The notes: generated by a model from the letters alone, not told the origin. A DNA stretch of 63,554 bases, filler included, from Folioceros fuciformis (GCA_049999805.1; 4 parts of 4 records of this genome joined end to end with filler, not necessarily neighbours in it); one strand, 5' to 3'. Shown: positions 7,700 to 30,600, counted from the whole stretch's first letter. A program made the numbers and translations.

Positions 7700-8015
7700 C
7701 TTTCTTTCTCAGTTTGGTCATCCAACCAAACAAGACATTCTTATGGCATGCTAAACCAGCCCATTTTCTTTCTCTAGTTTGGTCATCCAACCAAACATGA
7801 CATTGTTATGGCATGCCAACCAGCCCATTTTCTTTCTCTAGTTAGGTCATCCAACCAAACAAGACATTGGTATGGCATGCCAAACTTGCTACTTTCTCTT
7901 TCCACACATTATACTTATTTCTTCCTAGGTATCTACCAGAATATTCTCCCTTGTTGCTGATATTCACATTAAAGTTTGGTCATCCAACCAAACAAGACAT
8001 CGCACTAAACCAGCC
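7700..8015. repeat. ~62-bp degenerate tandem repeat (3 copies plus a partial)
   Basis: Core tttggtcatccaaccaaacaagacatt..tatggcatgc recurs at ~7713, 7778, 7842 and 7975. Confidence 0.8.
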
Positions 8016-8024
8016 ACATAAAGT

Positions 8025-8742
8025 AGGAACTTAGGGTCTAATGAAAGATTTAGGTCTGGATTTTGGATCGGTAATAATTTTCAATTTAGGATTTAGATTT
8101 CATAGCAATTTTCAATTCGGATGGAGACCTGAGAGGTGAGGCAAGGGCATGAGGCGTAGGGTCTCAGCCCTCGCGAAGGGCAAGGCTGAGGCGTGGATTG
8201 AGGGCCTTAGTTATAGAGTAAGGGCACCTAAGCCGCAAGGCCTCAGCCCTCACGCAGTCATGCGGAACCTCAGCCCCCACCACGCGTAAGGTGATGAAGG
8301 GCTGCACCCTTGCCCTCTGGTTTGTCTATAGCCTCGACATTACACTTTGGTTTGGTAATGTCCTCTTCAGCAAGGAGGGGCTTATTCATCCTCGCCCCAA
8401 AGCGAACATAAGTTAAGTGTGTATTTTTCCAAAGGTAGAGTGAGATGGTTTGTTTGCTTTGCCATGCCATATATTGCACCAAACCGCCCACACAAAGCAA
8501 GAACTTAGGGTTTCATGAAAGATTTAGGTCTGGATTTCATATTGGTAATAATTTTCAATCCAGGATTTGGGTTCGATAGTAATTTTCAATTTTGGATTGA
8601 GACATGAGAGGAGAGGCAAGGGCATGAGGCATGGGGCCTTAGCCCTCACATGGGGCAAGGCCGTGAGGCAAAGAGTGAGGGCTTGAGTCGCGGAGTGAGG
8701 GCAACTAAGCTGCGAGGCCTCAGCCCTTCACACAGTCATGTC
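8025..8742. repeat. Diverged ~245-bp direct duplication (8025-8270 / 8499-8742)
   Basis: Both copies start gaacttaggg..atgaaagatttaggtctggattt and end cctcagccc..cac.cagtcatg. Confidence 0.75.
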
Positions 8743-10754
8743 AGATGTTGATGCCAAAAAGTTTCGACTCTTAGCACTTTTCGAACCAAATTTTTGGAGT
8801 GATACTTGTTGGTCCATGATAGTCCTATTTCCAAAAATCATTAGAGAGGTATGGCACGACAACTGGACAAGAGTAGCCCTATGGACCAGGTCTATTGTGA
8901 CACCGGTCTAATCCTATAGCCGAGCCCAGAGCAAAACTCCGGTAAAAGTGAAGACTGGCAAACACCTTATTTGGCAATCCGCCGAACTTTAGTGGAGGAG
9001 GATTTAGCAGACCATGAGTTCGAGTTAGACAAAGAGTCCAACCTAAACACTACTCCAACAATAGCTTTGAGAACACGGGATTTGCTAATAGCGAATCCGG
9101 TAGTCTAGAAGCCTCCCGATAGTCAACACCAATGTTGGGCTCTAGGTAGGTGGCAGTGTGCAGTGGCAGCCCAGAAGGAGGGATGCCAGTGGGTAGTCTT
9201 CACTGATGTGGATGAGTGCATCTTCCTCAGCACCTACATGATGTTGATAGAATCAGCCAAGGCCGGAGCCTCCACTTGCAAGTATAGTAGGTTCAAGAAA
9301 CAGCCTAAGAACAAGTGTAGCAAACAAGTATCGTCAGGATGATGGCGATGAGTGCAAAGGTGAGCAGAAGAGGGCTCTGCAATAGCATAGCTCAGCGGCC
9401 AAGAAGCACCACCATCAAGGAGCTTGATGCGGAAGAAGAGGAGCGGAAGGAGGGTGCAAGGTGTGTCAACGTGGGCATAAAAGAGGCGTCCATCTTGATG
9501 AGGTTGATCCACGACATCACCATGAGGTAGAAGCGCCTATACTTGTCAGTTGACACTAGCTAAGCGGCGGCCCCATGAGCAATCGGGGAGATTTGTTTCG
9601 ATTGCCACAATTTGAGGTCATTAGGGCTTAAGAGCCATCCCAATGATGGGGTGATTGTAAGCTACGATTGCCGAATGGTGGCTCCCAAGCACCACAAATC
9701 TTTGGTCATAGCAAATTCTTTCAAGGTGAGCCCAACATGAGGTCTGAACTCCACGAGCAAGGATCAATCTCATGTGGGACAACCTCTAGAACCACGGCCA
9801 ACTGTAGGACAACGAGTGGAAGGGCCTGCTGGACTGGATGTAGAAGCTGCAGACTGAGAACAAGGAGTTTCGGGTTAAGACGGTGGAGCTCAAAAATCCA
9901 AATGTCGACACCAAAGTTGGGCTCCTCCAGACACAAGTGGAAGCGGTCACCACATTGCACCTACGTGAACAGACAATAGCCACCTCGACAGCTTTGGAAG
10001 AGCACCGAAGGTATGTAGGGGTTGCTACAGCTCAACACGCCGACCAGCCCGAAGCTAGGTGGTGACCCAAGTATCAGACACTAGGTCTACAAGCTGTTTA
10101 AGACCCACTCTTGCAATGGAAGCTGGGCCTCGAACCTTGCTTTTGATCGAGAGCGCTCCCGCTCTAGATTGATGCATTCCCGCTCTCATTGCTTCCATCT
10201 CGAGTGTCCTTTCTTGCAGAGGACCTCTAGCTTCGCGTGTACCAGCCCCCTTCACTCCGGCCTACTCCAACTAATGTTCGATCCAAGCTAGAAGCGACCA
10301 AGATCAACAATGCTTGTGGGAGGTGCTCGGCATATCCCTCGGTCATAGCTACAATGACTCCGGACAACGGACGCCCCATCATGGGTACCAGACCCTCCCC
10401 TGCCCCCTCCATCTTTGCCACTACTGTCCCGCTCTCCATACTACCCCTTCTTCCCTCCATCGCGCTTCCTTGCCCAACATAGATGTTAGATAAGATATAC
10501 ATATATAGGTGATATACATATATTGTATAAAACATTAACCTATAGATTAGGTCAAGTAGACTGTAGTCGTTTAGGTTAATGGAGGTGACCTTTAGCCAAG
10601 CGTTACCTAGAATGGTATTAAGACTTTTTTGGTTGTTGACATTCGTTGTTCAATTATCTACTACCAAGAGATTAAGCAAGTATTCTCGCTTCCACTCGAC
10701 AATTTACATGGTATCAAAGCATGGTGCTCTGTTTCCTATCTACAGACTCTAAGG

Positions 10755-11390
10755 ATGCCGAGGCAGGGTGGCGGTAGGGGGGGTCAACGTGGTGCACTCC
10801 CAAGAAATAGAAGGAGGGAGTTCCACCCACGAAGACAGACAGCAAGCGTCCCTATTGACACTTTGCTGGATCTCTACGAGCACGACTACCCTGTACTCTG
10901 GCTGAGACGTTTTGTGGCACAGCGTAGCAACCCCCCTGGACCGGCTCACGTCCTCAACAGTAATCTTGAGACTGATCGCCTGTATAAGGAGCGCTGTTGC
11001 AAGAGAGGACAGAATCCAGAATTGTTTTACAGCAATAGGACTGGAGTACCCTCACCTTGCCTTAGACCCCCTGTGCCACATCAACACGCAAACAGCATCA
11101 ACAAAAACTCTCCACCATTGAGTAGTAGTAATAGTGCGCAACGCACATTTGTTACCTTGGCTCGTGTGGAGAAGGTGCTCACGTTGGCTTTAGCCAACCA
11201 GGAATCTGTGAGGAACAGGGTAGACAGCCTGAATCGCAACGTAGAATTGGCCATATCAGAATGCAAACATGAGATCAAGCAGGATTTGAATTTCGTGACT
11301 TATTCTCTGCAAATGATGAACCTTAGATTGCAAAAACTTGAAGCTGGCTGCAGTTCTGCTGCTGTTGGGTCCCAGGCTGAAGAATCCTGA
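10755..11390 (+). CDS. Extra ORF upstream of gag in copia-2 (RGG/basic N-terminus, coiled-coil C-terminus)
   Basis: Uninterrupted 211-aa ATG ORF starting 34 nt after the PBS: MPRQGGGRGGQRG... LARVEKVLTLALANQESVRNRVDSLNRNVELAISECKHEIKQDL. Confidence 0.6.
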   Translation: MPRQGGGRGGQRGALPRNRRREFHPRRQTASVPIDTLLDLYEHDYPVLWLRRFVAQRSNPPGPAHVLNSNLETDRLYKERCCKRGQNPELFYSNRTGVPSPCLRPPVPHQHANSINKNSPPLSSSNSAQRTFVTLARVEKVLTLALANQESVRNRVDSLNRNVELAISECKHEIKQDLNFVTYSLQMMNLRLQKLEAGCSSAAVGSQAEES

Positions 11391-11818
11391 GAATTTGCGC
11401 TGCTGTCGAGCGGAGCGTCTTGGCGCAGGAGCAACTCAGACCAGGATCTGAAGAGGCACGATGTGAAACGCGCCTCCTCACCGACTGTGCTTGCTTGTTT
11501 CTTGATTTGTCCACCTGTAGGTGTCTGTTCATCTGACAAAGATGTGGCGGTTAGCTTGAACCCTAATTTTTTATTTTAGTTTCTTGAAACGACATGTTTT
11601 TAGGGTTATGCCTATAAGCACAACAGTTTACTAGTGTCTGAAAAGAAGTTGAGGAGTTTAACATCAGGAGGGCATAATTTCTTACTATCCCTTGCCTCTT
11701 GTTAAACCCTCCAACCTCCTCTCCTACACTACACTAATCAGATCTTCAGATTATTGCATGAAATAGGACAATGCAGGGCAGGATCAGGTCAGGATTCTTC
11801 TCTGCAAGGTAGTCACAT

Positions 11819-14800
11819 ATGTCCTTTAGTGATTTTGACATTGACGACTATTTTTCCTGGTTGTATTCCCCTTCATCTATGATGGCTGCCCCAAGCCCTG
11901 CAAGTCCTACATTAACTTTTACTTCTGAGTTAAAAGAGAAGGATCGTTTCAAGGGAAGTGGTTACCTTTTATGGAGAGTGCGCATGAAAGCCATCATGTC
12001 GGCTCGTGGCTTCTGGCCAGTCCTAGATGGCACGTTCAAGAAACCTGATCCGACCACAGACCCTAAGAACCACGCCAAGTGGCTACATCACAATAGAATT
12101 GCCATGGCTATCCTCATCAATGGCTTGGATGCAGATCTTGTGCCTGATATTGAGTTCTTGGACACAGCAGAGGCCAGATGGCATCAGTTGGAAACCACTT
12201 ATCACTCAACTAACATGATGTCCCTATCTGCTGTAAGAATGGAATTTTACGCCTTGAAAATGAAGGAGGGAGAGAAGATTGCTGTCAATACCAGCAAGTT
12301 CCGACATCTGCGTGCCCAGATCACGTCGCTGACTGGAAATAAGATGCCGGAAGTCGAAGCTGTATCCCAGCTCCTTATTAGTCTCCCACCCTCATATCAG
12401 AATTTCGTCACAACCCAGAATGGCCCTGTTAAGCCTGCTGTTGCTGGATCTGTCGCTACTGCTGCCCCCACTGTTGAGGACATCAGTGGCGCTCTCTACC
12501 AGGAAGAACAGGCGCGCACTCTCTCTGGTCATGTTCCTAAGAACAAGGCAGAGCGAGTGTTAGCTGTGAATTCTCGTTTTCTCAAAGGAAAGGGGAAATT
12601 CAAAGGGGAAAGTAACCAGGCTGGACCTGGAGGCTTTTTTGGGTGGACTGGTCCATCCAGCAGTTCAGCTAAGAGACCAGGATTGTGCAACTGGTGTGGC
12701 ACCCCTGGCCACTGGGCAAGAGAATGCCGAAGAAAGAAGGCAGGTGAGCCACAGCGACAGCCGAAGGCAAACTCTGCTGTCAAGGAAAAGAACTCTGGAG
12801 AAACAAAGGCGCCAGTTAAGATTCTTACTGCGTGCTTGTCCAGTTCCTTAAATGACGATGGCAGCTGGTACTTGGATTCCGGAGCCACGACTCATATCTG
12901 CAAGGACAGGGAGTTGTTTACTACCCTTAACCTTAGTCATGTCAGTGACAAGGTGCTACTCGGAGATGAGCAAAGTACAACCAGTCTCCCATTGATGGCA
13001 GAGGTACTTGCATATTTCGGCTGCAAGACGGTACACACCTTAGTTTGAGTGATGTCTTGTATGTCCCAAGTATGGCTAAAAATCTCATGTCCATGAGCCA
13101 GCTCCTCCGCCTTCGCACCTTGTGTATGCGTGCTGATTCTAACCACTGCTCCTTCTACAGAAAGGCATACCCAGATACATGTGTCTTCAAAGGTATTTTA
13201 GATCACGATCTGTATCGGTTGAATATCAATTGCGGCCCTGTTGTCGTTCCCCAGCCTGTCGCTCACTCAACCACACTGAATACAGTTAGTGAACAACAGG
13301 AGGCAGTGTTATGGCACGCTAGACTAGGTCACGTTAATAGGGCTAAGCTCATTGATATGTTCGTCACCGAATGTCACAAGGAGCCTCTTCCTAAATGCTT
13401 CAAGCATTTACCTGTCTGGGAGTTGTGCATACTGGCCAAACAAAAGGAGTCACCTTTTCTGAATGCCTCTGCACACAGAGCCACAGAAGTGCTGGAATTA
13501 GTGCATGCCGATATATCTAGAAAAATCCACCAGCCCTCCCTTGGAGGCTCTCGCTACTTTTTCACCCTTACAGATGATAACCCTAAACCCTAAACCCTAA
13601 ACCCATGAACCTTTCCAATGCGTGCTAAAAGTGATACCTTTAGCTACTTTCAGGACTGGCTCCTTACTGCTCAGAGGCAAACAGGCAAGTTGATGAAGAT
13701 CCTCAGGACAGACAATGGGACAGAGTTTGTTAACTCATCCTTTGATAATCTTCTCCAGGAGGCTGGGATCTTGCGACATCTCACTGTTCCCTACACGCCC
13801 CAGCAAAATGGCGTGTCAGAACGCAAGAATCAAACGCTACTTAGCATGACCAGAAGCATGTTACTTTGGGCAGGCTTACCTCAAGGCTATTGGGCCAAAG
13901 CCATTGTAGCAGCCACCTACATCCTCAACAGGGTGCTGACAAGCTCAGTTCCACAGAGGACTCCTTTCGAGGTGTACTGGCGCAAGAGGCCCAGCTTGCT
14001 TCATCTCAAGGTTTTTGGCTCCAAGGCTTTTGCCTATATCCCAGTTGAGAAGCGTAAGAAACTTGACCAACGTGCCCAGGCCCTTATTTTTGTGGGCTAT
14101 AGCGAGCAGGCCAAGGCATATAAGCTATACAACCCGGAAACGGCATCTATCGTGCTTGCCAGGAGTGTTACCTTTATTGAACCACAAGCTCCTCCCTCAG
14201 CTGTTGAATCTGTACCTGCGGATCCTGTTTTGGAGACATGGACAGATGTAGCTGCAGAATACCCCTCAGATGACACCGAGTCTGTTGTCCCTGATCCTGA
14301 AGTTTCTCCAGTCCCGCCTGGTCCTGCTATTGCGGATGACGGACCTGCGCTGGATCTACCGGATTTTGCAGCAGAGGGGGAAGGTCAGCCCCAGGATGCT
14401 GTACATGCAGATGAACCTCTGTTACCTGTTTTTGCTGACAATGCTGCCGAAGATCCGGAAGATGAAGAAGAACCGGCTCCTGCTTTACGCCGTTCCACCC
14501 ATTATCGACCCCCACCTGAGGAATGGAATGCACCACGATATCAGTCCATTTTCGCACTCACCTTGCCGTTTGCCCTCCGCTTCCCGATGAGCCAACCACT
14601 TTAACTCAAGCCTTCTCAGGCCCACAGTCCTCACAGTGGAAGGCTGCTGTCAAGGAAGAATATCAGTCTCTTATGAAGAATAAAACATGGCAGCTTTCAG
14701 ACCTCCCATCAGGACGCAAGGCTATTTCCTGCAAATGGGTATTCAAGCTTAAGCTAAACGCCAAGGGTGAGGTAGCACGATACAAGGCTAGGCTAGTAGC

Positions 14801-15060
14801 CCGTGGTTTCACACAGGTTGAGGGTATTGACTATCAAGAAACTTTCTCACCTGTTGTGAGGACCCAGTCGATTCGTATCCTCCTAGCTTATGCCACGGAG
14901 CATGATCTGGACCTCCAGCAGATGGACGTCTGCACGGCCTTCTTGTACGGTGCTCTCAATGAAGAGCTGATATTCTGACGAAGGGCCTACCTAAGAACAA
15001 ACACTATCCCCACATGGAGGGATTAGGCCTACATGACTTCACAGTCCATTTTGATCAGTG
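11819..15060 (+). pseudogene. copia-2 gag-pol (gag, PR, GAG-pre-integrase, IN, partial RT fused to RNase H end)
   Basis: CNWCGTPGHWAREC; WYLDSGATTH; LWHARLGH; RTDNGTEF..QNGVSERKN; YKARLVARGF..QMDVCTAFL, then a jump to ADILTKGL at ~14966. Confidence 0.93.
13579..13604 (+). repeat. Interstitial telomeric tract (CCCTAAA)3 plus partial units, inside integrase
   Basis: aaccctaaaccctaaaccctaaaccc directly after the DD codons of FTLTDD. Confidence 0.85.
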
Positions 15061-15276
15061 ACTTATCTGGCAGAAAAGGGGGGGGGCTCTCGTGGATGCA
15101 GACGGATGTGGCGCACAGTTGTTTTATGGCACGGTACCACTGCCCTCTGGTCCAGCAGGCCTTCTTCCCAGTCTGTCACAGGTAAATGAAGAAGTCCGCA
15201 GGAAAGAAACCCTAGGGCCAGGCTATGTGGATGAAGCTTATTGGAAAAACTAATCACCTAGCAGTGGCTCCTCTCG

Positions 15277-15804
15277 TCAGACCTCTTCCTCTTCAACTTC
15301 CCTGGGCATCACGTCCTTGATCCTTTCAAGCAGTTTCACAGTTTCATCTAGCTGCTGAATGAGGGTTTGCCTCCCAACTTCCCCAACAGCTTCTGAGGGA
15401 AGGTTAGCTCGAGCCTTTCCAGTTCTCACAACTCCGAAGATCAGGCTCACACTCAGCTCAAGATTGAAGGCCCCTATGTGGACTCTTTGCCCCCATCCGG
15501 TCTTGTAATCCCAATCCCAGCCGCGGGCAGCATCCTCTTTCCTTTCCGCGGTTGAGATAGAAGAATCGGGCAAGTCCTTGGACGGGTCCTTCTTAGCGGC
15601 TCCGGCAGACCTTCGCGCTACTTCTCGCTTACTCAGAGTCCCCACACGCTGATAGCACTTCCCACTGCGAGTTCTCTCATGGTGGCTAAGCTGAACAAGT
15701 TTGCAAGCAAGAAGATGACCAGCTCGATTCCTGTCATAGCTGTAGCAAGGGTGAGCGTCATCTTTGAGAAGTGCGCTTTTGATGCGCTCCCCGATCTGTA
15801 CCAC
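15277..15804 (-). CDS. Antisense ORF in the copia-2 3' region, function unknown
   Basis: 175 open codons between pol end and PPT, acidic tail EVEEEEV; no recognised domain; non-ATG start. Confidence 0.35.
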   Translation of the reverse strand: MVQIGERIKSALLKDDAHPCYSYDRNRAGHLLACKLVQLSHHERTRSGKCYQRVGTLSKREVARRSAGAAKKDPSKDLPDSSISTAERKEDAARGWDWDYKTGWGQRVHIGAFNLELSVSLIFGVVRTGKARANLPSEAVGEVGRQTLIQQLDETVKLLERIKDVMPREVEEEEV

Positions 15805-16631
15805 CGGTATACGCTCCTAGTGTAAGCTGGACTTAGCTGGCTTAGGATGGGGCATGCTCGGTGCTCGGGTATAAAGGCGCGTGATGATTCCAGCTGCTGC
15901 CGACTTCTCGTGTTTGGGTGCCCCGTGCAGGGGTTTTCTATTGTTTAAGGACAATCAATGGTTAAGTTTAAGAGGGGGTGTTAGATAAGATATACATATA
16001 TAGGTGATATATATATATTGTATTAAATATTAACCTATAGATTAGGTCAAGTAGACTGTAGTCGTTTAGGTTAATGGAGGTGACCTTTAGCCAAGCATTA
16101 CCTAGAATGGTATTAAGACTTTTTTGGTTGTTGACATTCGTTGTTCAATTTATCTACCAAGAGATTAAGCAAGTATTCTCGCTTCCACTCGACAATTTAC
16201 AATAGATCTGTCGTGCTTCAAGAGGTCTTGCTTTTCAACATCTGAACTTAATCCTAAGCGTCTTTGAACACTCTTATTTATTATATATATATCATGCATT
16301 CATATGTATATGGGGTGGCCAGCCCCTATATGATATACGCGTATATTCTTGTCAGCAGTGCACTTGGATGCCTTCCCTTGAGTGCTTCCTCTCCGTCGTG
16401 CACACCAAGGCTACTGGTCATCCTGCCACTCTTTGGTGGTTTACTACATACGAGATCGACGAAAGGAGTAGCTTATCTCTACTCCTCCTCCCTTTATGTG
16501 AGTTCATTGATCACACTCATAATTCTTGGATGTTTCCTCACTCCCCCCCTTAATCTGCTGACCATCTCTCGTTGGAAAGCCAGATTAACAAACTTTTCAT
16601 CAACATACATATATGCTGAACATACCGCCCT

Positions 16632-17210
16632 TCACAACGTATCAACTGCTACACACATTGGGCAAAACCACTGCCCAGCTGGCACCGCTTCTAGTAGGGG
16701 CTCTAAACAAAAAGTATGCCACCCATCATTGCACCTATCACACAACAACATGCAATGATCACCTCCAGAATCTTCACAACCTATACAAGCAAACCCCTTC
16801 CTTGGCACAAAAACTTGCACATTAATTATCGGATTCAAGTGAGGTAAATGACATGGTGCACAATTTTTCATGTGCTCCAAACAAGTTGTACCATCCTTTC
16901 CCTCCAACTCCATAATTCTATTCAACTTCACACTTCTTACCCTTAATATTATCCTACTCGCACTTGTATCAATTATTGTCATTGTTTTCCTTTGCAAATA
17001 TACATAATCTCCAACTTCAATTTTTTTCACTTTGGGCCTGAAATGTTCACTCCTTGTTTTCCTGTATCTTAACTCATCCCTGTGTTGAGCTATTAACGAA
17101 TTATCCATTGCCATAGACATTATTTTTCTAAACAACTCCGCTCTATGTGAGACTATCTTTAACCACTTATTAGGATTATCCACTATAGCATTCACTTTGT
17201 CTTCTAACAT
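16632..17210 (-). pseudogene. Integrase C-terminal region with PHD finger (PHD at 16653-16787)
   Basis: C4HC3 pattern CIGC..MLLCDRCNDGWHTFCLEPLLEAVPAGQWFCPMC. Confidence 0.92.
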
Positions 17211-18001
17211 CCCAGATAACTATGGTCTACGCCCAAACAACAACATGTATGGTGAAAACTTTCCCAGCAATGCTTGCCTACTCATTCTATAACCCATTGC
17301 AAGAAATGGTAACATCCTATCCCACTCACTCTTGTCCATTACCAAACAATATTTCCTCAAAGCACTCTTACATGTCTGTACCATTCTTTCTGCAAACCAT
17401 CAGCCTCCGGATGATTCCTTGAAGTTACCCTATGATCAATAAGATACTCATTTAAAAATTTGTCAAACTCTCCCATAAATTCAGTACCTTGATCTGTCAA
17501 AACTTCTGCACAAGCTCCAAAAACACTCAACACATGATTAAGAAATGCTTCCTTAATATCATGTGACTTCTTCTCTCTTAAAGGCACCAAAACTATCCAC
17601 TTAGAAAAATGTTCTATCACCAACACATATTTAAAACCTCTACGCATGACTGGCAACTCTCCAGCCAAATCCAAACTCCACCTATAAAACATCCCTCTAA
17701 TAGGTAGCGGATGAAGTTGAGAAGTTTTGCTTGAGAAACTTGCCTTCACCCTATCACAAACCTTACAAGTAGACACCACCTTCTCAACTACATCCATCAT
17801 TCCCTTCCAGTAATAACTATTCATGAGCAAAATTAATGTTCTTTTTGTACCAAAATGTCCTAACTCTACATGAATCTTTCTTGCCAAACCTATTCTTCCT
17901 TCAGGTCTTGGTACCACCCTCATGTTATCTTTAAACAACAACTTTATGTCAACCCACACATGTCTCCTACTTCCCTTTGTCACCCTGTCATTTTCCTTCA
18001 C
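17211..18001 (-). pseudogene. Gypsy integrase zinc-binding and catalytic core
   Basis: HVELGH..CKVC; WSLDLAG; EHFSKW; LTDQGTEF; HPEADG. Confidence 0.92.
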
Positions 18002-18031
18002 CGTTAGCGATTCTTGATTACCACTGTATCA

Positions 18032-19727
18032 TCACTGTGTCATCACTGTCTCCAATGTGTTCTTATCCTCCCACACATCTACTGGCACCGAAGAAACTCC
18101 CAACTCCACCAAATTTACCAAGTATGCACTAGGTGTCCATATGGACACCACCAGATTACAGTCAACCCCAACATTCTTATCAAAATCTTGCCTGGCAACT
18201 GTTGAGTCCTCCGAAGTCCCTAATGGATTCCTTGACAATACATCTGCATTTGCATGTTTCACCCCGCCCTATGCTCAATAGAAAAACTATACTCTTGTAG
18301 AATAAGTGCCCACCTTGCTAACTTTCCCGTCAACTTTTCACTCTTCATCAACCACTTCAAGGGCTGATGATCAGTCACCAACTCAAATTGAGCCCCATAC
18401 AAATAAGGCCTAAACTGTGATACTGCCCATACAGCCGCCAAACATTCCCCATGATACGAGGAATAAATGCTCTTTGCAGAATTGTTACTCCTGCTTGCAT
18501 ATGCTACCACATGTTCTACCCCACTCTCATCATCCTGTGCCAACACTGCCCCCAAACCAAGTTTGCTCCAACCTATATATAACTTAAACTGTCTATCAAA
18601 ATTAGGTCTTGTCAACAAGGGCTTGCTCATCAAAATGTCCTTTATCTCCTTAAATGCTCTCTGTTGATCTTCTCCCCAAACCCACACAGCATCTTTCTTT
18701 AACAACATTGTCATTGGTTTTACCACCACAATATGGTTTGCCACAAAATTGCGATAATAATTCACCAATCCTAAAAAGGAACGCAAAGTTCCCACATCTG
18801 AAGGTGGGTATCATCTTTGCTATTGCTTCAACTTTCACATCAGATGGTGCCGTACCCTTAGGCACTATGAAATGTCCCAAATATGCTATCTTAGAGGACC
18901 CAAACCTGCACTTTTGTGGGTGACACGTCAAACTGACCTCTTTCAATCTTTCCAACACTCACCTAACGTGCTCCTTATGCTCTTCTATAGTGTTACTCAT
19001 CTATGTAACATCTGACGAATGTCAAACCCCTCAATGCTTGATCCATTGCTCTCTGCAAAGCATTAGGAGCATTCTTCAACCCAAATGGAATAACCACCCA
19101 TTCCCACAAACATCTATTACCCCAAAAGGCAGTCTTCTTTTTATTCTCCTCCTCAATTTTAATTTGGTTAAAACCACCCCTCAAATCCAATGTAGAAAAT
19201 ATATTACATTCACCAATTGCATCAAAAATTTCCTCTGGAGTTGGCATTGGATATCTATCCATAGGCGTCACCTCATTAAGCGGCCTATAGTCACCACACA
19301 TCCTCTTTTCAGTCTAATTACCATGCACATCCTTTTTTGGTGGAAGCACCGTAGCTGCTGCATACTCTGGCTCCGAAGGTCTTATCAATCTAGCTTCAAG
19401 TAACTCTTGACGTTTCTTGTCTACAATCTCATTCTCCAATTTACTCAAACGATATGCCCTTCTGAAAACTGGTTCAACAGTTTTAAGCCGAATCTTAAAC
19501 TTAAACGTCTTGTGCCTGCCTAATTCCTTATTGGAAAAAGCAAGTACCTGCCTGGTGGTTTCCAAAATCCTTACAAAATCCTTCCTATCCTCCAAAGTTA
19601 TCTCATCAAAAATATCCCACTGAAAATCCGTACACTCCTGTTTCTCACGGACGTTAAACTCACAGCTTGCGCTAGCCACATTCCCAGTTTTTCCTTCTGC
19701 ATCTATAACCTTTGCCTCATGTCTCAT
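18032..19727 (-). pseudogene. Gypsy RT and RNase H, frameshifted
   Basis: MCGDYRPLN..FSTLDLRGGFNQ..PFGLKNAP..CYID; LRSFLGLVNYYR; LGAVLAQ..VAYASR..TDHQPL; HANADVLSR. Confidence 0.93.
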
Positions 19728-19867
19728 CTATTTGCTCTGCTTACACTCATCACCTAAAACCTCATCATGCTCTCTCATTCTCTTAGTCTCCCCCTAGCCT
19801 GTGGGTCTTTCTCTCTTCTTACTTTACCCAGCTTACTTTCTTCCAACCTTGTGCCTAAAATAACTTT

Positions 19868-20943
19868 CTAGTTTCTCTTCCATTCTCGATTAACATTTAT
19901 ATACATCATAAGCCATCTGATTGTATTCAAATCCATAGCTTGTCCGAGTTTTTTATTCCTTTGCTCAAATGTTATGCCCTCCACTTGAGTAGTATTTGTA
20001 TCAGAACCCATCGCCCTCTCTCTCTCCATGGGAGATGGTACATCCCACACCTTCCTCTTCGTATCAAATATCATCCCAGGCCCTTCCCCTTTAAATGCAC
20101 TGGCACCCTCAAAGCTTACAAACGTCGGCAACGCCCTCCTAAGCTCCCCTTTCTTATTTACACAATAAAAGGGCTGTCTATCATCTGAAGTCACCTGCCT
20201 ACTCACTCGCCCCTCATCTAATATCTGGTCAACTATTAAATTATCATCCCTTCGCCACTAACTCACAAGCATTTGCAACAAATGCCTAGGCATCATGTTA
20301 TTCCAAAAAAACAACAATACCTATGAGCCCTAGATCCAAACTGCACCGCATCCAACTTTATAGGTTCACCCAAATAATACTTGATCTTCTCAAAATCCCG
20401 CCTCAACACTACTCTTCTATCCATTTGCGAATCCATATTCTTAATCAAGAAACCACATTCCTTCTTCTAATGCCTTTGCACCCAATTCAAAATCCTAATT
20501 AGCTCATAAAATAACACCGACCTATAATCCAACAAGCCTTTTCCCTTGCCCGCCATTGAATGCTCTTGACATTCCCAACCAGCTATTATCATATCAACTT
20601 CTTCCTCCATTTGAAATTGTACCAATCCAATAAGCCTAACATCTTGCGGCCACACAGAAAATGCTTGTTTCACAGCTTCAACCTTTAACTGTTCAGGATA
20701 CTTTTTGCATAACTTAAATACTCTAGACTTCGGAATTGCCTGACAAGCTTCATCTGGATCACAATAAATGTAACGTCTGACCACATACCCAGCAGCCAAC
20801 ACAGCCTCCACACCATATGCAATCCCAGCAAACAACTCAACCACAACCAATCCATACTCATACGAACTCAATGTCACAAGTTTATACACACACGGGTTCA
20901 AGTTTACAAACTGCTTTCTTTGTACAAAGCTGAATTTTATCAT
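19868..20943 (-). pseudogene. C5 cytosine DNA methyltransferase domain inside gypsy pol
   Basis: Motif I VVELFAGI; motif IV DMIIAGWECQEHSMAGKGKGL..RSVLF; after a TAG the same frame gives motif VI GFLIKNM and motif VIII LDAVQFGSRAHR..FWNN; motifs IX/X PMERERAMG..RNKKLGQAMD. Confidence 0.9.
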
Positions 20944-21129
20944 CTATCTGAAACTCAGCTTGTCTCTTTTCAAGCTCTCTAAAAATTTCAGCTAATGCTC
21001 TACCAACATTCTCTCATTGCAATTTCTTCCACTCTGTTATGACTATATTCCTTTAAACATAACTTATCCATATGCCTCTCCATCCACAACTTATCATCTT
21101 CATCTTCTTCCTCCTGCTCATCCCAAGAA

Positions 21130-22025
21130 GTCGTCATGTTTACTACACACGCATCTTGCATGTCCTCCTGTAATTACAACTTAAGTGGAATTGTTGCTAT
21201 TCTGATTTCTTCACCTTGTCGCCACCCTAGACGATAGTAAAACTCCTCTGTCCATAAGTCCACTCCTCCTCCATGCAGGAATAAAGCCTATGTCCCTAAA
21301 ATAACATCAAAATTTCCATACTCAAAAATCAAACATTTCATATCAATCGTCGTCTCTTCTTCTATCCCAGGCTTAAAACACAACTGCAATTTCTCTTTAG
21401 TTTCCCCCATCACTGTCTCCAAACCTCCATTGGCCATCCTAATCTTCCATCTTGTCTCCTGTACATCTTCCTTCCTCAATCCCATAGCATATGCCATGCT
21501 ACAATGGGTCAATGTAGGTTGCGCTCCTAAATCTATCAATACCTTTTCAGGCGCAAAACCTTCTATCAAAAATTCACACCCGCCATTGTCCAAAAATGCA
21601 ATTCCTGGTCTAACTTTTGTTCTATCTCCATTATTACGCCTATTACTATTAAGATAGAGTGAAACTATCTTGCTTAACTTCTCATTTGCATTAGGCCACT
21701 CTACTATCACGTCTTGTAAAAGTTCTCGTATTTTTGCCTTGCTCACCCCCACCTTGATGCCCAACTCTAACATACTTCGAATACAACCAATCACATCATT
21801 TTGAGACACCTGCATTCTCTTGTTCACTTGCTGTTCCAACACCTTTACTGCTCTGTCATACATCTTCTCACCAAAATCTTTCATATCAACATCTAATACT
21901 TCAAATGATTGCGGATATTTCCAACATGACACCGTTGATCTTCCTTGGTCCTTATGTTGACCTTCCAGCCTTGTGTTGTATCTTTTCTGAGCAACCTCTA
22001 CTTCCAATGCATCTCCCATGTCCAC
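21130..22025 (-). pseudogene. Gypsy aspartic protease region
   Basis: KVLIDLGAQPTL (D-S/T-G-like), IRMANG, FDVILGT. Confidence 0.8.
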
Positions 22026-22046
22026 TTCACAAACAAATGCATCCAG

Positions 22047-23598
22047 CTAAAACTCCTTGTAAGCTTTCTCCTTCTCACCCAAATCCTTCCTTTTTTCCAT
22101 TGTTCGAACTTCCTCAATTTTAACTCCACCAATCTGTCCACCAGCTGCCTCCAACCTATCATTCTTAGCCTTCAAGTCCGTTATCTGCAACTCCAACGAT
22201 TTGTAAGATTTGCTCATCCGACCTAAACTATCTCCACTGGCTCCTCCAAATTTATTTCCTTCAGCCCTTTGCACATGTCTCACATTCTTAACACCATGTC
22301 CCTTAAAACCAAACTTTGTAGGCTTGAGAGAAGGATACCAAACTTTCTCCAAATGTCCTTTCTTTCCACAATGATTACAACCTACATCCCTCTTAATTGA
22401 ATACTCCATCATCATATGAGAACTACTCCCAAAACGTAAGCACTTATCCCTTTTTCTGTCTCTACATTCATGACAGGTTTCATGTACTTGTTGTCCATTC
22501 TTGACATGTTCGGTTGCTGCTGCCAAGTCGGTCTCCCTTTAGGCAAAAAATTATGTCGGTGAACTGTCGCTGAAAATACATCTCCCTTCCTATCCGCTCC
22601 AACCTTTCTTCCCATGGCCTTAGCAATGCTCTTACTTGCTCATACTTTTCTGCAATTGGAAATACTTGTTCCAGTGTGTATGTTTTACCATACAATGCTG
22701 TCAATTCTCTAAACACATCTTCCTTAATATCCTTATCCAGATTACAAATATACTTAAAACATACTTCCATCTCCTTGTGCATTCCTGTATTTGTTTCCAG
22801 CTAACTAGTACGATTGTAAAACATAAGTGCCGTCTCATCCGGTTTCCTTTTTAAATTTGCCAACTCTTCTATCTTCATGGCATTAACAGATGGAAACCTC
22901 ATCTCCAATCGAATGAAGAATTCCTTCACCGGCTTAGCATGTTTATTGGACACTACCAAATTCTTGAAACTCTTCAAATAAAACTTGTAAGCATCTCCAC
23001 ATAACAAATTCCCTAACAAAGTACATTCATATATGGGATCCAACTCAGCGTCCTCACCTCCACACTCCTGTAACTTAATCATATGAAACATACACATTAA
23101 CTGGCTAATGGATACTGATGACTTGGGATGCCCAGAATACTTCTCACTCTTTGCAGGCAGTACCACTCCCCCTCTACCTTTTCTTTCCATCCCAAAAACC
23201 TTTTCAGTTGACAAGCTTAACATTTGATTGTCCGTTCTTCTCACCAACGTTCTCACATCATTCACTTCCTCCGTTTGTCTTTGCACTTCCATAGGCTCCA
23301 CAATCTGATTTTGTACGTCCATGACAAGTTCTTTGTCTCTAATCAGAAACCCTCTTTCTTTGCACCCACGCCTCCAGTCTTCATCTGACAATTGTAATCT
23401 TTCTTCCCTTGCTTCTACTCCCACAGACGTTTTATGTATTTTGTCAATGTTCCCATTAAGATCTACATTTCCAATTTCTCCCTCTACCTCTTTACCTAAA
23501 ACATTCGCTCTATGCGGATTCCCTCCTTCCTCATCCAGCACACTGCCTGAAATATAGCTCCCCCCCAGACTCTTAGCGTTTGCTCCTTTACTCTTCAT
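22047..23598 (-). pseudogene. Gypsy gag (degenerate, two CCHC-like knuckles)
   Basis: LKRKPDETALMFYNR; CLRFGSSSH and CNHCGKKGH. Confidence 0.7.
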
Positions 23599-25029
23599 CT
23601 TTGACTACTCAACCTTTTTCTTAAATCTTCTATCTGAACTTTTATCCTCCATTACCCTCTTTTCACCTCTCCCAACTTTTACAGAGTCTATCTCACTTCT
23701 TGGCCTAGGCAATACCCCAGCTCGTTTAACACTCACCCGCGTCACTCTAACACTTTTCATCACAAGTCTCTTCATGTTTAAAAGTTAAGCACTAGTTCAA
23801 ATAAAGATTGTCACGCCAAAGTTTGATAACTTTGACAACCAATCAAGTCTCACATTGGTTTATATCCAAACCAGCACAGATACAGTGTAGAATACACTTG
23901 CTCAAAAACTGGACGCCTGGTGGCATTCCACACTAAGTTCACTTCTCCCTCTTTTCTCTCTAAGCACTTCACTAAACCTTTCACATCTGAAAAGTGTCAT
24001 TCAAGCACTATCAAATCATCATAGAATGCCTCAAGTTGACTCCAATTCTTTGGTTTTGAACATCCTATTATGAGGCGTCTCAAAATTTCTTGTCTTCTTT
24101 GTTTTTGTTCTTCCTCCTCCTTTTTGTGACACTCGTGATCCTCCTTTGCAATCTGCTCGTCCAATTCCTTCTTCTCTTCTGCTATCTGCAACTCATTATC
24201 CTTCAGTTCAATCTTCTCACCTTGTTGGGTCCCTCCTGCACAACTTCTTCCACACTCATTTCACAGTATTTAATATTTGTTTTTTTTAAAACTATTTTCA
24301 ACATCCAGCAACGAATTGACGATGGTAATCCCGTTTACCAGTCTTTAACAAAAAAATTTAACAGCCCTCAATCTCACTTCACTACGAACTGCTTTTTTTT
24401 TTTCGCGAAACAATTTTGATTAATTTGGCAAAAGCCTCCCACAACAATACAAAAGGAGAAACCTGCTAATGTATGTACAAACATCAAGCACCAGAAGAGA
24501 GGGGGAGAACTGGCCTTGAGTCCAAGACTCAAGACATGGTGCGCAGAGAGCGCTTCCCTACACTATGATACCCTCGAACTGCCATGCCATTTTTACTCAC
24601 CCTCAAGGTCTCCCATGGACTTTGGGACTCACCGTCTCTAGGGGCACAAATGATTCCATCGCAAGTTTTTCTCAGGTGCTAGAAATCCCGCCATCCTCCA
24701 GTCTTTCCGCTTAAACTGCTTCCGACGGGATTGCTCCCATGCTTCTGCTGCAATCAACAAATGCTCCCATATGCGCCACAACAAAGCTTTCGATGAAGCT
24801 GACTCTTGCCCTCCATAGACCACAACGGACCAGTTGACCCACAGATGGAAAAGGCAAGAAGACCACAGTAAGCCCCACCATTGTGTTTGAAGAAGAGGTT
24901 TGCCTGAGGTTGCATCGAGCCCAAATAAAGCGGATTGTGACGTGATCTTGAGGTTAGCATGTGGAAAAATCAAACATAGCCACCTGCCAACCTCCTCCCA
25001 TATCTCTTGGGCAAAGCTGTAGTGAAAGA

Positions 25030-25335: not shown

Positions 25336-26576
25336 TCAACATAGCATCTGTACGCCTAACATAGCTCGGAATTTCTTCAGCTTCTCTGCTCCCATTGGCT
25401 TAGTAAATATATCGGCTATCTGCTCGTCTGTGTTGACATACACAAGATCAATAGCTCCAGATAAAATCCTTTCGCGAAGAAAATGATAATGTATTTCAAT
25501 GTGTTTTGTCCTGGCATGAAACACTGGGTTTCGCGCCAACTGTATGCTGCTAAGATTGTCACAGTAGATAACAACCTTGTCGTTGACCTGCAATCCAAAA
25601 TCTCCGAGTAACTTACAAATCCAAGTCACTTCACACGCTGCCATTGCTGCGCCTCTGTATTCAGCTTCTGTACTAGACAAAGCCATTGTAGGCTGCTTCT
25701 TGCTACTCCATGTAATTGCTGCACTCCCAAGTGAAAAAATGAATCCACTTGTAGATCTACGATCAGTAACACTGCCTGCCCAATCTGCATCTGTGTACCC
25801 ACACAGGTTTATTTCTAAATCTGCAACATAAAAGAGAGCATGATCCATAGTTGCCTTCACATAGCGCAACGTTCGCCTTACTGCATCCAAATGTGGCTTT
25901 CTTGGCGCCTGCATAAACTGACTTTGCAATCCCACTGTATAGTTCAAATCTGGTCGGGATAGAGTGAGATATATCAAGCTACCCACAATCTTCCTGTACA
26001 TTGTTGGATCTTCAAGTGCTTCACCATCATGAGCACTGAGCTTTAGATTTTGATCCAAAGGAATCGAGATTGGCTTGCACTCAACCATACCATACTTAGT
26101 TAGTACATCCGACGCATACTTCCGCTGTGACAGCCAAATGCCTGTGTTGGTTCGTATAATTTCAATGCCCAAAAAGAACCTCAGTTCACCTAGGTCCGCC
26201 ATCTTGAACTCTTGTTGTAGAAGTTCCTTGATCTGCTCCACTTGATCCAACTGATTACCTCCAATGATTAGATCATCCACATAAATGGTCACAAAGACCA
26301 GTCGTTTTGTACTTTTGCACACATACAACGAATGATCCGCATCTGCCATGTTGAATCCGATGTGAATCAGATGCTGAGCAAGACGCTCATGCCAAGCCCT
26401 CGGGGCTTGCTTCAGTCCGTACAACGTTTTTTTCAGCTTGCACACATGATTTGGATGATCCAAATCCTCATAACCTGGTGGCTGGTCCATGTATACTTCT
26501 TCCAGCAATTCTCCATGTAAAAACGCATTCTTCACATCCATATGATGTAGGACCCAACCTTTCGATGCCGCTAGTG
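25336..26576 (-). CDS. copia-3 RT/RNase H (open frame, cut by assembly gap)
   Basis: MDVKNAFL, YGLKQAPR, IYVDD, DADWAG, SSTEAEY, HARTKHI, ADIFTK. Confidence 0.95.
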
Positions 26577-26730
26577 NNNNNNNNNNNNNNNNNNNNNNNN
26601 NNNNNNNNNNNNNNNNNNNNTTAATTAATTAANNNNNNNNNNNNNNNNNNNNNNNNNNNNNNNNNNNNNNNNNNNNCCGATCCAGGTTGCTCGTGCGCTG
26701 AGAGTTAACGCACGACATGGATCGTCGCCA

Positions 26731-27305: not shown

Positions 27306-27669
27306 TAGATCCTAGAGCGTTCCTTCAAACCCGCGGTGCCGCATGCGCCGGAAAAATATTAGTTAGGGTTCTGGGTGGGTCCCTCCACGGTCGTGAAAAC
27401 AACTACCAATTGCGGAAACAGCAACCGCGGTCGTGGAGTGGGAACCAGAGTTGTAGTCCGTGGTAGCTGAGCTAACTGGGGGTAGTAGTAGTTGAGCTGG
27501 TAGGTAGTAGGGACGGTAGTAGGTGAGTCTTGACTTAGGTAAGGGTCAATAGTGATAGAAGTTAGCGTTCCTTGGCACAAATCATTCCCTTGGGAGCGAA
27601 TCATACAACTACAACAACATAGAAGGTGAATGTGGACCTCATGGTGTCTCTGGACACAAGATTTCACTC

Positions 27670-30600
27670 CACACATGCTCACATGGAAAGTGTGACACAT
27701 ATGCCAACCGGCTGGAAGATCGAGTGTGTAGGCGACATCATTGACCCTACCTACAATTTTGAAGGGGCTTGCAAACTGATATGCCAACTTGTGTTTTTGC
27801 TGGAGTAGTGATGGATACCGGTGAGGACGGATGTGAAACCACACTAGCTGGTTGATGGCGTAAGAAATCTCCCGCTTGTGCTTATTGCTTGACTTTTTGG
27901 CGCGGTCTTGAGGTGATAGAAGATTATGTTTTGCTTTGTGCACTTTGTGCCATATGTCTTCAGCAACTTCGGCTGTGCTCCTCCATTTGGTGTCACTAGC
28001 TAGCCACAATCCGGGTGGTGGTGAATTCTCTTCGTATAACAACTTGAAGGGGGATACTCCTGCGACCACATGCTAGGAATTGTTATAGGCGTACTCGAGG
28101 AGACGTAGGAACTCTTCCCGCTTGCCTTGCTTGTCATGCGTGTAGTGTCTCAACATGTCTTCGAGCACTTGTATCTAACGTTCTGTCTGACCATCAGATT
28201 CGGGATGGCATGTGGAGGACAAACTCTGCCGGATGCCCAAAGTTTCGGTGAAAGCCCGCAAAACCCTATTGTGAACTTAGGGTCATGGTCTTGAACAATG
28301 TTCTTAGGGCAGGGCAGCCGTGACGTCTAAAAATATCCTTGGTGAATAGGCTGTCCAACTTTAGAGCTGTGATGTTGGAATTCACCGAAATGAAGTGGGA
28401 GCATTTGGACAACCTGTCCATAACCACCTATATGCTGTCTTTCCTGTGTGTGTACGTGGGAGGGCTGTTACAAAATCCATGGAGATGGATTGAAACCTTT
28501 CCTCTAGTACGTGCAAAGGTAACAATAGTCCTGGAGTTTTCTGATGTTCTGGCTTGAGTTGCTAGCATGATGCACAACTTCTTACCCACTGGATGTAGTC
28601 CTTGCACAGGCCCTCCTAGTGGAAATGGGTTTTCACCCGTTCATAAGTCTTGTCAATGCCCTAGTGTCCACAAATGGGAGAATCATGCAAATCATGTAAG
28701 TTACCTCTTTGGATTTCCTTTAGGTGCTGTGGGATCACAAGTCGGCCCTTTCTATAGACACAAGGGTCCTTAAGCTGGTAAGTCTGCATCAAGGCCGTAG
28801 GTGTACCTCCTATTGTGTCTTGCACTAACCGCTGATAAATTTTCTGCAAGTGTAGATCCCACGGGATGGTTGCTCTAATAGTTCTGATGGTGTCCAACTA
28901 GGAGGACATGAATGTGAGGGCTCTCCTGTTGAGGGCATCAGCTACAGAGTTGGAGGAGCCAGTGACATACTTAATGATAAAATTGAAATCAATTAAGTAC
29001 TCTGACCATCTTCTCTGACGTGCATTCAAGTTGGGCTGGGTAAAGAAATGCTGTAGGGAGTGATGGTTAGTGTGTACTGTGAATTTTTGTCCAAGCAAGT
29101 AGTGTCGCTAGACATTGAGTGCATGAACAATGGCAAGCATCTCCTTGTCATGAACTGGATAATTGACCTGTGCACCTTGAAGCTTGTGTGATTCATATGC
29201 AATCACCCATCCTTCCTGTGATAAGACAGCCCTAAGGGCAAGGTCTGACGCATCTGTGTGCACACTGTAGGTACCCTTGGGATCTGCCGTTGCTAAAACT
29301 AGTCCAGTGCTCAAAGTCTGTGTCAGTTGGATGAAGGCCTGTTGGGCTGTTGCATCCAAGTGCAAAGGCTTGCTAGGAGACAGCTTGAGAGCATCTGTCA
29401 GGGGTAAGGAATCTTACTAAACCCTTGGATGAACCGGCGGTAGAACCCTGTAAGTCCCAGGAATCCCTGGAGTTGGATGATATCCGTGGGTAATGGCCAT
29501 GCTATGACAACCGTGACCTTGCGTGGATCTATGCTAATCCCAGCCTTTGTGACTATGTGTCGTAAGTATTCTACTTTTTTGCGCATGAAGGTGCACTTGC
29601 TCCTCTTGGCTAACATGTGATGTTCCTTCAAAAGCAGCAGGATTGCCCTAACCAACTTGATGTGGTTTCTGGATTTGCAAAGTGGATCAAGATGTCATCA
29701 AGGAACACTTCTACGCCCTGCCCCAACAATGGTATGAGTGATGCAAGACATACTCAGGCCATTGTTGGGGCAGGGCCCCAAACAATAGGGTTGAGCACTG
29801 AAATGTTGCTGGTGCATTGGTGAGGCCCATGGGCATCACCACCATCCACTCATAATGGCCATGGTGGGTCCTGAAAGCTGTTTTGTGCTCATCACCTTCC
29901 TTGACACATATCTGGTAGAAGCCAAAACGTAAATCAATTTTGGTGAACCATGTAGAACAACGTAGCTGGTCAAGAATTTCATCAATTCTAGGCATTTGGT
30001 ACATGTTCTTTGCTGTGGCCTTGTTGAGGCCCCTGTAATCTATACAAGGCCTCCGTCCACCATCAGGCTTGGCAACCAGCAATATTGGAGCTCGATAAGG
30101 TGAGACACATGGATGCACAAAACCCTGGGCTAAGAAGGCATCAACCTGTTTTTTGATTTATGCATTGGACGTCTAGGAGGAAGCTTTGTGGGATCGGCAA
30201 ATAGATCACTAAATTCTATTAGCAGTGACTTCATTTCTTCAGGAAGTGCTTCTTCCTCTTGAGCCTGTTTCTCTGCTCGTGATTCTATTGTGCCTTCTAA
30301 TGGGGTGACCTTTTTCAACTTTGCTATGTATAGAAAGTTGCCGTGGGAAGTTGCTTTATGTAATGCAGAGACAGCAAATAAATGCTTGTCTGGTATGTAG
30401 GTTTCTCCCACTAACTTGTACTACTGGTGGTCCACCCGCAAGTTGACCACATTGTTCAGCTAGTCAATCTGAAGGTGCTGGGAATGGGTAGCTAGCCAGG
30501 GTTTTCCCACTATCACATCGTGGACTAGGCTAGGCATCATAATCACTCTCAATTCTTCAGTGTATCCCCCTGGGAAAGTAAGCTGGACTTCTACCCACCT

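Follow-up and report, generated by a model that had tools for sequence, protein, structure and literature searches.

Introduction

Cytosine methylation is the main weapon of hosts against transposons, and transposons that carry a cytosine methyltransferase of their own are therefore paradoxical. Since 2018 this paradox has rested mainly on Symbiodinium and on one charophyte. Here we analyze a 63,554-nucleotide stretch of DNA from Folioceros fuciformis (GCA_049999805.1; four parts joined end to end with filler), referred to throughout as the window, whose minus strand carries at about 16207-24450 a dead copy of a Ty3/gypsy-type retroelement whose coding region includes a Dnmt3-like C5 cytosine methyltransferase (DNMT) and a PHD finger.

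The closest described elements are the Gypsy elements of Klebsormidium nitens, in which a Dnmt3-related DNMT lies within the Pol open reading frame (ORF); they were reported in 2018 (PMC5890265, considered here as described in its main text). An earlier reading of the window made from its sequence (hereafter the sequence-only reading) had cited this study, by de Mendoza and colleagues, for DNMT-bearing retrotransposons, and the citation is apt. A 2026 preprint (10.64898/2026.05.21.726589) refers to 'Gypsy-DNMT3' of streptophytes as known. Because this element type is already published, the window element is another, dead, example of it, and the defining trait of Gypsy-DNMT3 elements, a DNMT within the gag-pol coding region that is common to the copies of the family, was found here as well. 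KnitGypsy-Dnmt3 resembles the window family in being of Gypsy type, in its intronless Dnmt3-related DNMT within the coding region and in its streptophyte host. However, its repeats are arranged as in DIRS elements according to the legend of Fig. 4, whereas the relatives of window type have plain direct long terminal repeats (LTRs). The term PHD occurs 0 times in the main text of that paper, and the comparison is one by description and not by sequence (PMC5890265).

Three other systems share part of the same equipment. SymbioDIRS-Dnmt3 and SymbioLINE-DNMT of Symbiodinium are likewise retrotransposons with a captured cytosine DNMT, but they belong to the DIRS and long interspersed nuclear element (LINE) classes and to another host lineage, and the domains of the DIRS elements methylated CG in yeast; it was in the study of these elements that methylation of the cDNA following reverse transcription was proposed (PMC5890265). 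The EpiLTRs (Fernandez-Moreno et al. 2026) are LTR elements that unite a methyltransferase 'writer' with a chromatin 'reader'. They are described from Cymbomonas and Euglena with a DAM adenine methylase, a DNMT4-related DNMT and a chromodomain (10.64898/2026.05.21.726589), whereas the window family pairs a Dnmt3-like DNMT with a PHD finger and lacks DAM. The chromoviruses carry a histone-reading module at the C-terminus of the integrase, which serves as an integration tether (cited in PMC6673714); their reader is a chromodomain, while that of the window family is a PHD finger and a putative tether.

Our literature search found no PHD finger together with a Dnmt3 domain in one Gypsy element, although Fig. 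4c and Supplementary Figs 13-14 of PMC5890265 may show such a case. Nor did it find alternative DNMT positions, a gag-protease-DNMT product followed by a leaky stop, or an E-C motif IV, some of which may appear in the figure or supplements of the same paper. The main text of the 2019 survey of plant LTR elements by Neumann contains neither 'PHD' (0 occurrences) nor 'methyltransferase' (PMC6317226), so that the PHD-tailed integrases of Selgy elements mentioned by the sequence-only reading are left without support, though they are not thereby refuted.

A Ty3/gypsy-type element with a methyltransferase and a PHD finger

The element encodes, in order on the minus strand, gag, protease (PR), Dnmt3-like C5-methyltransferase, reverse transcriptase (RT), RNase H (RH), integrase (IN) and PHD finger, as judged from Pfam matches and from colinearity with intact relatives. 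Among these relatives, P-numbers denote database proteins and L-numbers denote environmental or metagenome loci found with the family alignment. Ten minus-strand stop-to-stop ORFs were submitted to Pfam. DNA_methylase (PF00145) matched at 20467-20943 (E 4.8e-8, 33.2 bits for a cut-off of 22), RVT_1 at 18993-19313 (E 2.3e-13) and RT_RNaseH at 18259-18810 (E 1.9e-35). Integrase_H2C2 (E 3.3e-13) and rve (E 2.5e-10) fell in the ORF 17357-18028, and PHD (PF00628) in the ORF 16632-17219 (E 5.4e-8, 33.2 bits for a cut-off of 24), the finger proper being at 16653-16787. Five of the ten ORFs gave no Pfam match, namely two gag-like ORFs, PR, the C-terminal half of the DNMT and the N-terminus of RT; these were placed by homology to intact relatives.

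The DNMT domain occupies 19910-20907, with identities of 44%/34% to P0002 and 41%/44% to L001 ORF1. Its homology to L001 falls into two segments, 20859-20320 and 20308-19910. The evidence for the C-terminal half is homology, residues 1119-1251 of L001 ORF1 aligning with 20308-19910 at 44% identity. The same holds for PR (21210-21695, active site D-L-G): residues 654-823 of L001 ORF1 align with 21695-21210 at 30% identity, and together with residues 693-852 of L004 ORFa the range is 30-31% (E ~1e-17 to 1e-18). The L001 segment homologous to the window PR itself matches Asp_protease_2 at E 2e-4, below the Pfam cut-off. Downstream of the DNMT, the domains from 19676 to 16653 were likewise placed by homology to intact relatives. 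RT lies at 18812-19676 (46-55% identity to L001 ORF2 and P0002), RH at 18262-18834 (59-61% to P0002, L001 and L004) and IN, with its H2C2 zinc finger and catalytic core, at 17393-18268 (46% to residues 486-785 of L001 ORF2). The C-terminal region of IN, which ends in the PHD finger, covers 16653-17396 and is 49% identical to residues 785-1034 of L001 ORF2. All eight C4-H-C3 ligands of the finger are present in the translation. The pol order PR-RT-RNaseH-IN of Ty3/gypsy elements is thus found, with the DNMT placed between PR and RT, as Pfam and colinearity with L001 and P0002 indicate. No chromodomain matched in the Pfam scan of the window ORFs and the PHD finger occupies the C-terminus of the integrase, so that the element does not class as a chromovirus.

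Upstream of PR, a gag-like region (22047-23604) without Pfam match contains the relic of a zinc knuckle, C-X2-C-X4-H-X4-W, readable in the translation of the ORF 22047-22538; residues 235-342 of L004 ORFa align with 22932-22624 (30% identity, E 1e-4), and the relatives P0022 and P0023 carry a PF00098 zinc knuckle. The 5′ leader or upstream gag region (23605-24450) has a 5′ limit set only by the end of the strand-skewed composition. The plus strand is C-rich and G-poor over ~16.2-24.5 kb, with a GC skew of about -0.35 to -0.57 that persists to ~24400 and fades by 24600, and the sense (minus) strand contains A 0.32, G 0.29, T 0.27 and C 0.12. The C-poor sense strand is a family trait that is stronger in the window copy: its GC skew is +0.43, while 11 relatives that share its architecture range from +0.11 to +0.25 and a single relative with the other architecture has +0.28, for -0.03 and -0.05 in two other retroelements of the window.

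The sequence-only reading had described a gypsy element with PR, a C5-methyltransferase, RT, RH, IN and a PHD finger in order on one strand, with no LTR or other boundary between them. This description holds: all domains are present on the minus strand, repeat searches found no LTR or other repeat between them, the junctions are colinear with those of intact relatives, and PF00145 and PHD, two of the profiles that it had proposed to scan for, gave the matches above cut-off reported here. The span that it had given, 16632-22025, is exceeded on both sides, composition and homology extending the element to ~16207-24450. We conclude that this identity, and the membership of the element in the family described below, are almost certainly correct as judged from these comparisons.

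Decay of the window copy

The window copy is an old, broken and interrupted pseudogene. Compared with L001, it has undergone seven frame changes from PR to PHD, and its homologous segments contain 11 in-frame stops (7 TAG, 4 TGA). The single polyprotein proposed by the sequence-only reading is thus beyond the capacity of this copy. The PR active site is D-L-G, for D-[ST]-G in relatives, and RT reads Y-I-D-E followed by a stop, for Y-I-D-D. Within the DNMT domain the frame shifts once, near 20308-20320, and stops occur at 20467-20469 and at 20258-20260. Motifs I, IV, VI, VIII, IX and X had all been called recognisable; alignment to relatives and to DNMT3A supports this for I, VIII, IX, X and the cysteine of motif IV, whereas motif IV as a whole reads W-E-C-Q and motif VI reads K-N-M instead of the E-N-V of relatives, its glutamate being lost. 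With these changes in motifs IV and VI, the two stops and the frameshift, the domain in this copy does not qualify as a competent C5 DNA methyltransferase.

The 3′ end is interrupted by a copia element on the plus strand (10484-16201), which has LTRs of ~225 nt that are 97-98% identical (10484-10708 and 15979-16201) and is flanked by a perfect target duplication of 5 bp (10479-10483 and 16202-16206). The insertion lies ~430 nt past the PHD stop codon, where relatives carry their 3′ LTR. What is left of the stop codon and 3′ untranslated tail is 16207-16652, its cut end being marked by the copia LTRs and target duplication and by loose ends of sister-copy contigs at 16209. The lack of LTRs in the copy counts against its being read as an LTR element: direct and inverted repeat searches and blastn with word size 9 found no LTR pair or inverted terminal repeat, so that its full structure has to be taken from relatives. 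Smith-Waterman alignment of the two element ends gave a best score of 26 (shuffle maximum 32), and the far side of the copia insertion likewise gave nothing above shuffles. We judge the copy to be truncated or interrupted.

Two side observations concern the same 3′ region. Contig depth at 16104-16711 is two- to threefold that in the element interior, and joints at 16363-16524 in sister copies at which the alignment goes back hint that part of the 3′ tail is repeated in tandem or dispersed on its own.

The methyltransferase is inherited with the family

Intact relatives were found in several ways. A word-indexed search with the DNMT piece of the window returned three long proteins: P0002, a single ORF of 1217 aa that encodes DNMT-RT-RH-IN in this order and aligns colinearly with the window (34-59% identity); P0004, a Mesostigma viride model with PR-DNMT; and P0003, with the order RT-RH-DNMT-IN-PHD. 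Profile search gave 25 relatives, including proteins of Closterium sp. NIES-53 and Mesostigma viride, the Closterium 'unnamed protein product' uniting zinc knuckle, DNMT, RT, RH and IN. An exhaustive phmmer search with the DNMT query reached 782 representative clusters at E<=0.001, of which 348 remained at E<=1e-10. No match in these protein searches bore the name of K. nitens. In the Atlas search, the nearest DNMT cluster was labelled 'Streptophyta'; phage clusters came next and were treated as generic DNMT likeness. The order PR-DNMT-RT is kept in open frames of L001, L003 and L004, and DNMT-RT also in P0002, P0007, P0022 and P0099.

Sister copies were sought in contigs from three DNA runs (X1, X2 and X3) of one coded sample, which is probably the source of the assembly. 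Over the three runs, 1,727-2,083 contig pieces matched at >=80% identity, and all 30 bins of the element were covered. Diverged sister copies carry the DNMT: pieces ~85% identical span the linker between DNMT and RT into the DNMT (X2 record 13, 19762-20059), and others of ~85% identity connect RT with the linker (X2 record 12, X3 record 19). Among the 15 joints listed, of 75, none corresponds to an excision of the whole DNMT.

Of 72 proteins or loci, the 44 in which both domains are near full length were used, together with the window copy, to build trees of DNMT and of RT-RH. In the DNMT tree, eight rows of window type stand together on one side of a branch (SH-aLRT, a likelihood-ratio branch test, 91); in the RT-RH tree, 37 rows of the other architecture stand on one side of a starred branch (96). 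Both trees split the architectures alike, and the window groups in each with P0002 and L001/L003. Two points diminish the weight of this concordance. The DNMT tree is a quick tree whose branch between the architectures is not starred, and the rooting of the RT-RH tree depends on one long-branched row, because the other chosen outgroup, the second RT fragment of L038, proved to be of window type.

An independent event in the window copy would nevertheless explain some of what is seen there. The segment could be an element nested in the copy, a fragment captured from a host gene or a chimera of the assembly, in a family otherwise devoid of methyltransferase; this would fit a copy that lacks LTRs, that sits among nested transposable elements (the copia element and fragments beyond 24600) and in which DNMT and RT are in different frames. 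However, the same order in the open frames of relatives, the sister contigs that join the DNMT to the linker, the absence of repeats or termini around the DNMT segment and the concordant split of the two trees all speak against it. The kept order, the sister copies and the trees together lead us to reject the view that the segment arose by nesting or as a chimera, which we consider extremely improbable. The DNMT is, by these sequence comparisons, integral to the family and not a nested insertion. The sequence-only reading had named sister copies lacking the DNMT, or termini of its own around the segment, as what to look for; neither was found, for the copies among the joints listed and for the termini in the repeat searches, and its gypsy element with a C5-methyltransferase and a PHD finger in the coding region is borne out.

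In run X3, all contigs over 15800-24900 showed G>A at many plus-strand positions at which X1 and X2 showed none (510 G>A places in X3 for 244 each in X1 and X2). The pattern resembles that of a base-converted library or of another set of copies, and we draw no inference from it. From run X4, guessed to be RNA, 15 pieces were obtained; each lay on the stretch only in part, and they fell in 6 of the 30 bins, with none covering the DNMT. No inference is drawn from these either.

Two domain orders and a candidate readthrough stop

Domains were mapped by phmmer on 174 sequences of the family, of which 173 are database proteins and one is the window piece. The order RT-RH-DNMT-IN-PHD fits 72 of them, 27 with all five domains; 18 fit (PR-)DNMT-RT-RH-IN, which is the order of the window, and 84 show the DNMT only. 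A DNMT occurs together with a PHD tail in 41 sequences. Given this number, the 782 clusters reached by the DNMT query and the earlier citation of Gypsy-DNMT3, the rarity that the sequence-only reading had attached to the combination was overstated. Among 21 metagenome loci of >=6 kb, 14 have the tail formed by the IN C-terminus and the PHD finger, and 13 of these 14 have the window order. The PHD tail of the window is homologous to that of the other architecture, with 33% identity to P0003 for 49% to L001.

The anatomy of intact relatives of window type is best seen in L001. Its ORF1 (976-5082, 1369 aa) contains a segment just below the Asp_protease_2 cut-off and a DNA_methylase match (E 1.8e-13), and its ORF2 (5086-8226, 1047 aa) has Pfam matches to RVT_1, RT_RNaseH, Integrase_H2C2, rve and PHD. 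The two ORFs are in the same frame, parted by a single TAG, and L003 and L004 are built alike. L038 has direct LTRs of 344 nt, 91% identical and with TG..CA-like ends, which bound an element of ~9.1 kb, and L006 has direct LTRs of at least 307 nt, 94% identical, with similar ends. The one locus of the other architecture is truncated by the end of its contig. The intact layout of the window type is thus LTR, ORF1 with gag-PR-DNMT, an in-frame stop followed by CAR-YYN, ORF2 with RT-RNaseH-IN-PHD, and LTR. Three further features of these loci were recorded. L031 has downstream of an intact RT-RH-DNMT-IN-PHD ORF a frame open over 2153 aa to the contig end (5883-12341), without Pfam match. In L038, a second RT/RH fragment of window type (5247-7179) lies just upstream of the complete element, whose 3′ LTR is flanked on both sides by a 115-nt repeat (region 16605-17173).

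The signal at the stop was then compared over 32 loci having both the C-terminus of the DNMT and the N-terminus of RT. The two are in one frame in 26, and 23 of these 26 have an in-frame stop (17 TAG, 6 TAA) followed by CAR-YYN. The contexts are CAACCC (17 loci), CAGTTA (2), CAATCA (2), CAACCA (1) and CAACCT (1), so that five loci have the full CARYYA. In plants, a stop followed by CARYYA is the consensus readthrough signal, the C at +4 being the most important position (PMC5397192). The loci share with the readthrough stops of plant viruses, and with the gag-pol readthrough of retroelements, the in-frame stop, the +4 C and CAR-YY (PMC5397192, PMC2194720); they differ in that the upstream product ends in the DNMT, not in Gag or PR alone, and in that the context is mostly CAACCC. 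On this sequence pattern we favor programmed readthrough as the probable mode of expression of the window's architecture, albeit with limited confidence. Several observations go the other way. The strict CARYYA is a minority and CAACCC the commonest context; three same-frame loci (L016, L033 and L036) lack the signal; P0002, P0007, P0022 and P0099 run from DNMT to RT without any stop; and 6 of the 17 metagenome loci examined have no long ORFs, many loci being decayed.

In the window, the linker between DNMT and RT (19677-19909) is where the two frames differ, and where relatives hold the stop and CAR-YYN. A relic of the readthrough stop was sought in this linker, and all that precedes the RT frame is a TAG at 19728-19730 that is not followed by CAR-YYN. 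The layout of intact relatives also bears on the proposal of the sequence-only reading that writer and reader would sit in one chain. In relatives of window type the DNMT ends ORF1, and the two domains would be united only in the readthrough product.

Type and constraint of the two chromatin domains

The family DNMT profile was compared with solved chains. DNMT3A, DNMT3B and DNMT3C came out best (E 2.6e-16), followed by DRM (2.3e-9), M.HaeIII (2.6e-6) and M.HhaI (~1e-6 to 1e-5), while DNMT2, which acts on tRNA, was reached only at E 0.016-0.23. By these nearest solved chains, the methyltransferase appears to be Dnmt3-like. Over the 173 family proteins, the catalytic cysteine is kept in 156 and motif VI reads E-N-[VTAS] in 141. 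Motif IV is W/F-E-C-Q in 91 proteins, from both architectures, and W/F-P-C-Q in 56 (G-W-E-C-Q in 83 and G-W-P-C-Q in 52); 17 proteins, mostly truncated, gave no match. Between L001 and L003, the ratio of nonsynonymous to synonymous substitution (dN/dS) is 0.12 for the DNMT, 0.11 for PR, 0.03-0.04 for RT/RH/IN and 0.036 for the IN-C/PHD tail, values that are rough because dS is saturated (>1), which lessens their force. The value for the DNMT can be set beside the Ka/Ks < 0.2, taken as purifying selection, that is reported for KnitGypsy-Dnmt3 (PMC5890265).

The domain might be under selection without methylating DNA, either by acting on the genomic RNA or the primer tRNA or as a non-catalytic module that binds S-adenosylmethionine or nucleic acid. 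The DNMT shares ORF1 with gag in the window's architecture and, made with Gag, would be packaged with the RNA, which would suit such a role, and half of the family lacks the proline of the canonical P-C dipeptide of motif IV, with glutamate in its place, a point that also tells against a DNA methyltransferase. The DNMT domain of a K. nitens Gypsy element gave no detectable methylation in yeast, an adverse result for DNA methylation that its authors call inconclusive, human DNMT3B having failed as well, and RNA methylation has been raised for the LINE-borne DNMT (PMC5890265). Yet the closest solved relatives, DNMT3A/B, are DNA enzymes and DNMT2 is distant; the cysteine and motif VI are widely kept; and in the other architecture the DNMT adjoins the integrase, not gag. 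We regard an RNA-directed or non-catalytic role as unlikely, though a serious rival. DNA methylation by the family's DNMT is suggested by its type and motifs, and we advance it tentatively, at somewhat less than even odds.

The PHD finger of the window has KMT2C and ATXR5 as its nearest solved chains (E ~1e-15 to 1e-14), and KMT2D, KDM5A/B PHD1, BAZ2A/B, WSTF, CHD4, PHF21A, DPF3, UHRF1 and AIRE are further near fingers, 87 solved PHD chains matching at E<=0.01. Most of the fingers nearest to that of the window are readers of the histone H3 tail without K4 methylation.

A possible mode of action

We read the window element as a dead, LTR-less Ty3/gypsy copy, interrupted at its 3′ end by a copia element, of a large streptophyte-associated family with an inherited Dnmt3-like DNMT and an IN-terminal PHD finger, whose intact members would employ readthrough, methylation and PHD tethering; we put the probability of this reading at about 0.75. 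In the proposed cycle, most ribosomes would stop after the DNMT, so that the methyltransferase would be made in Gag-like amounts, and a minority would read through to give the full chain. PR would free the parts inside the particle. The DNMT might then methylate the newly reverse-transcribed cDNA or the DNA of the insertion site, as proposed for DIRS elements (PMC5890265). The PHD finger could tether the integrase to nucleosomes with an H3 tail unmethylated at K4, directing insertions away from active promoters; by analogy with the chromodomain of chromoviruses such targeting is conceivable, and we offer it with reserve.

Writer and reader may also be unrelated accessories, the PHD-tailed integrase being an old trait and the DNMT a separate acquisition without functional coupling. 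The window's architecture sets them at opposite ends and assigns them to separate primary translation products, domain mapping detected no PHD in P0022 (Closterium) and P0099, both of the order DNMT-RT-RH-IN, and PHD fingers are common accessories of many transposable elements (PMC6673714, PMC8557442). On the other hand, L001 and L003 have kept both domains under constraint, and the two co-occur in both architectures, in the sequences and long loci counted above. A lack of coupling seems to us somewhat unlikely. A bolder version would make the family a streptophyte-wide gypsy lineage with a private epigenetic kit in two layouts: the writer, made with Gag ahead of a leaky stop and so packed into the particle at high dose, would premark the cDNA before integration, a PHD finger of H3K4me0 type would place the copy in silent chromatin, and the C-poor strand (GC skew 0.11-0.43) would be the footprint, through fewer targets of its own or through strand-specific deamination. 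We consider this version speculative and quite improbable.

Being dead, the window copy adds little by itself, but it leads to a large and diverse family with named members in Closterium and Mesostigma. This family offers intact members, two layouts, a likely readthrough switch that would set the DNMT dose, and a PHD-tailed integrase. Its members are natural constructs for asking what the substrates of transposon-borne DNMTs are, how P-C compares with E-C in motif IV, and whether a PHD finger steers integration. If the host is a land plant, the family would extend beyond algae.

Surroundings in the window

The window consists mostly of nested retroelements, with copia gag domains of plant type. 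A second Ty3/gypsy element (27359-31332, minus strand) has no DNMT; its PR, matching Asp_protease_2 and RVP_2, lies at 30460-31332, and its RT/RH is only 32-39% identical to the DNMT family. Copia-type sequences are also present, with RVT_2 and gag domains at 1474-5601, enclosed by repeats of 233 nt (107-339 and 6686-6918), and with RVT_2 at 25336-26628. Repeats of 292 nt stand 11 kb apart, at 51421 and 62463 (region 51421-62754). Rfam and tRNA scans of the window yielded nothing that would identify the host. Two likely host genes were noted, both on the minus strand. An exon of an MFS transporter (43225-44232) shows the same level of identity, 49-54%, to its orthologues in angiosperms, a fern and a liverwort, which places the host among the streptophytes but close to none of these groups. 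The other is an ORF with an mTERF domain (49460-50188) that runs into a run of N.

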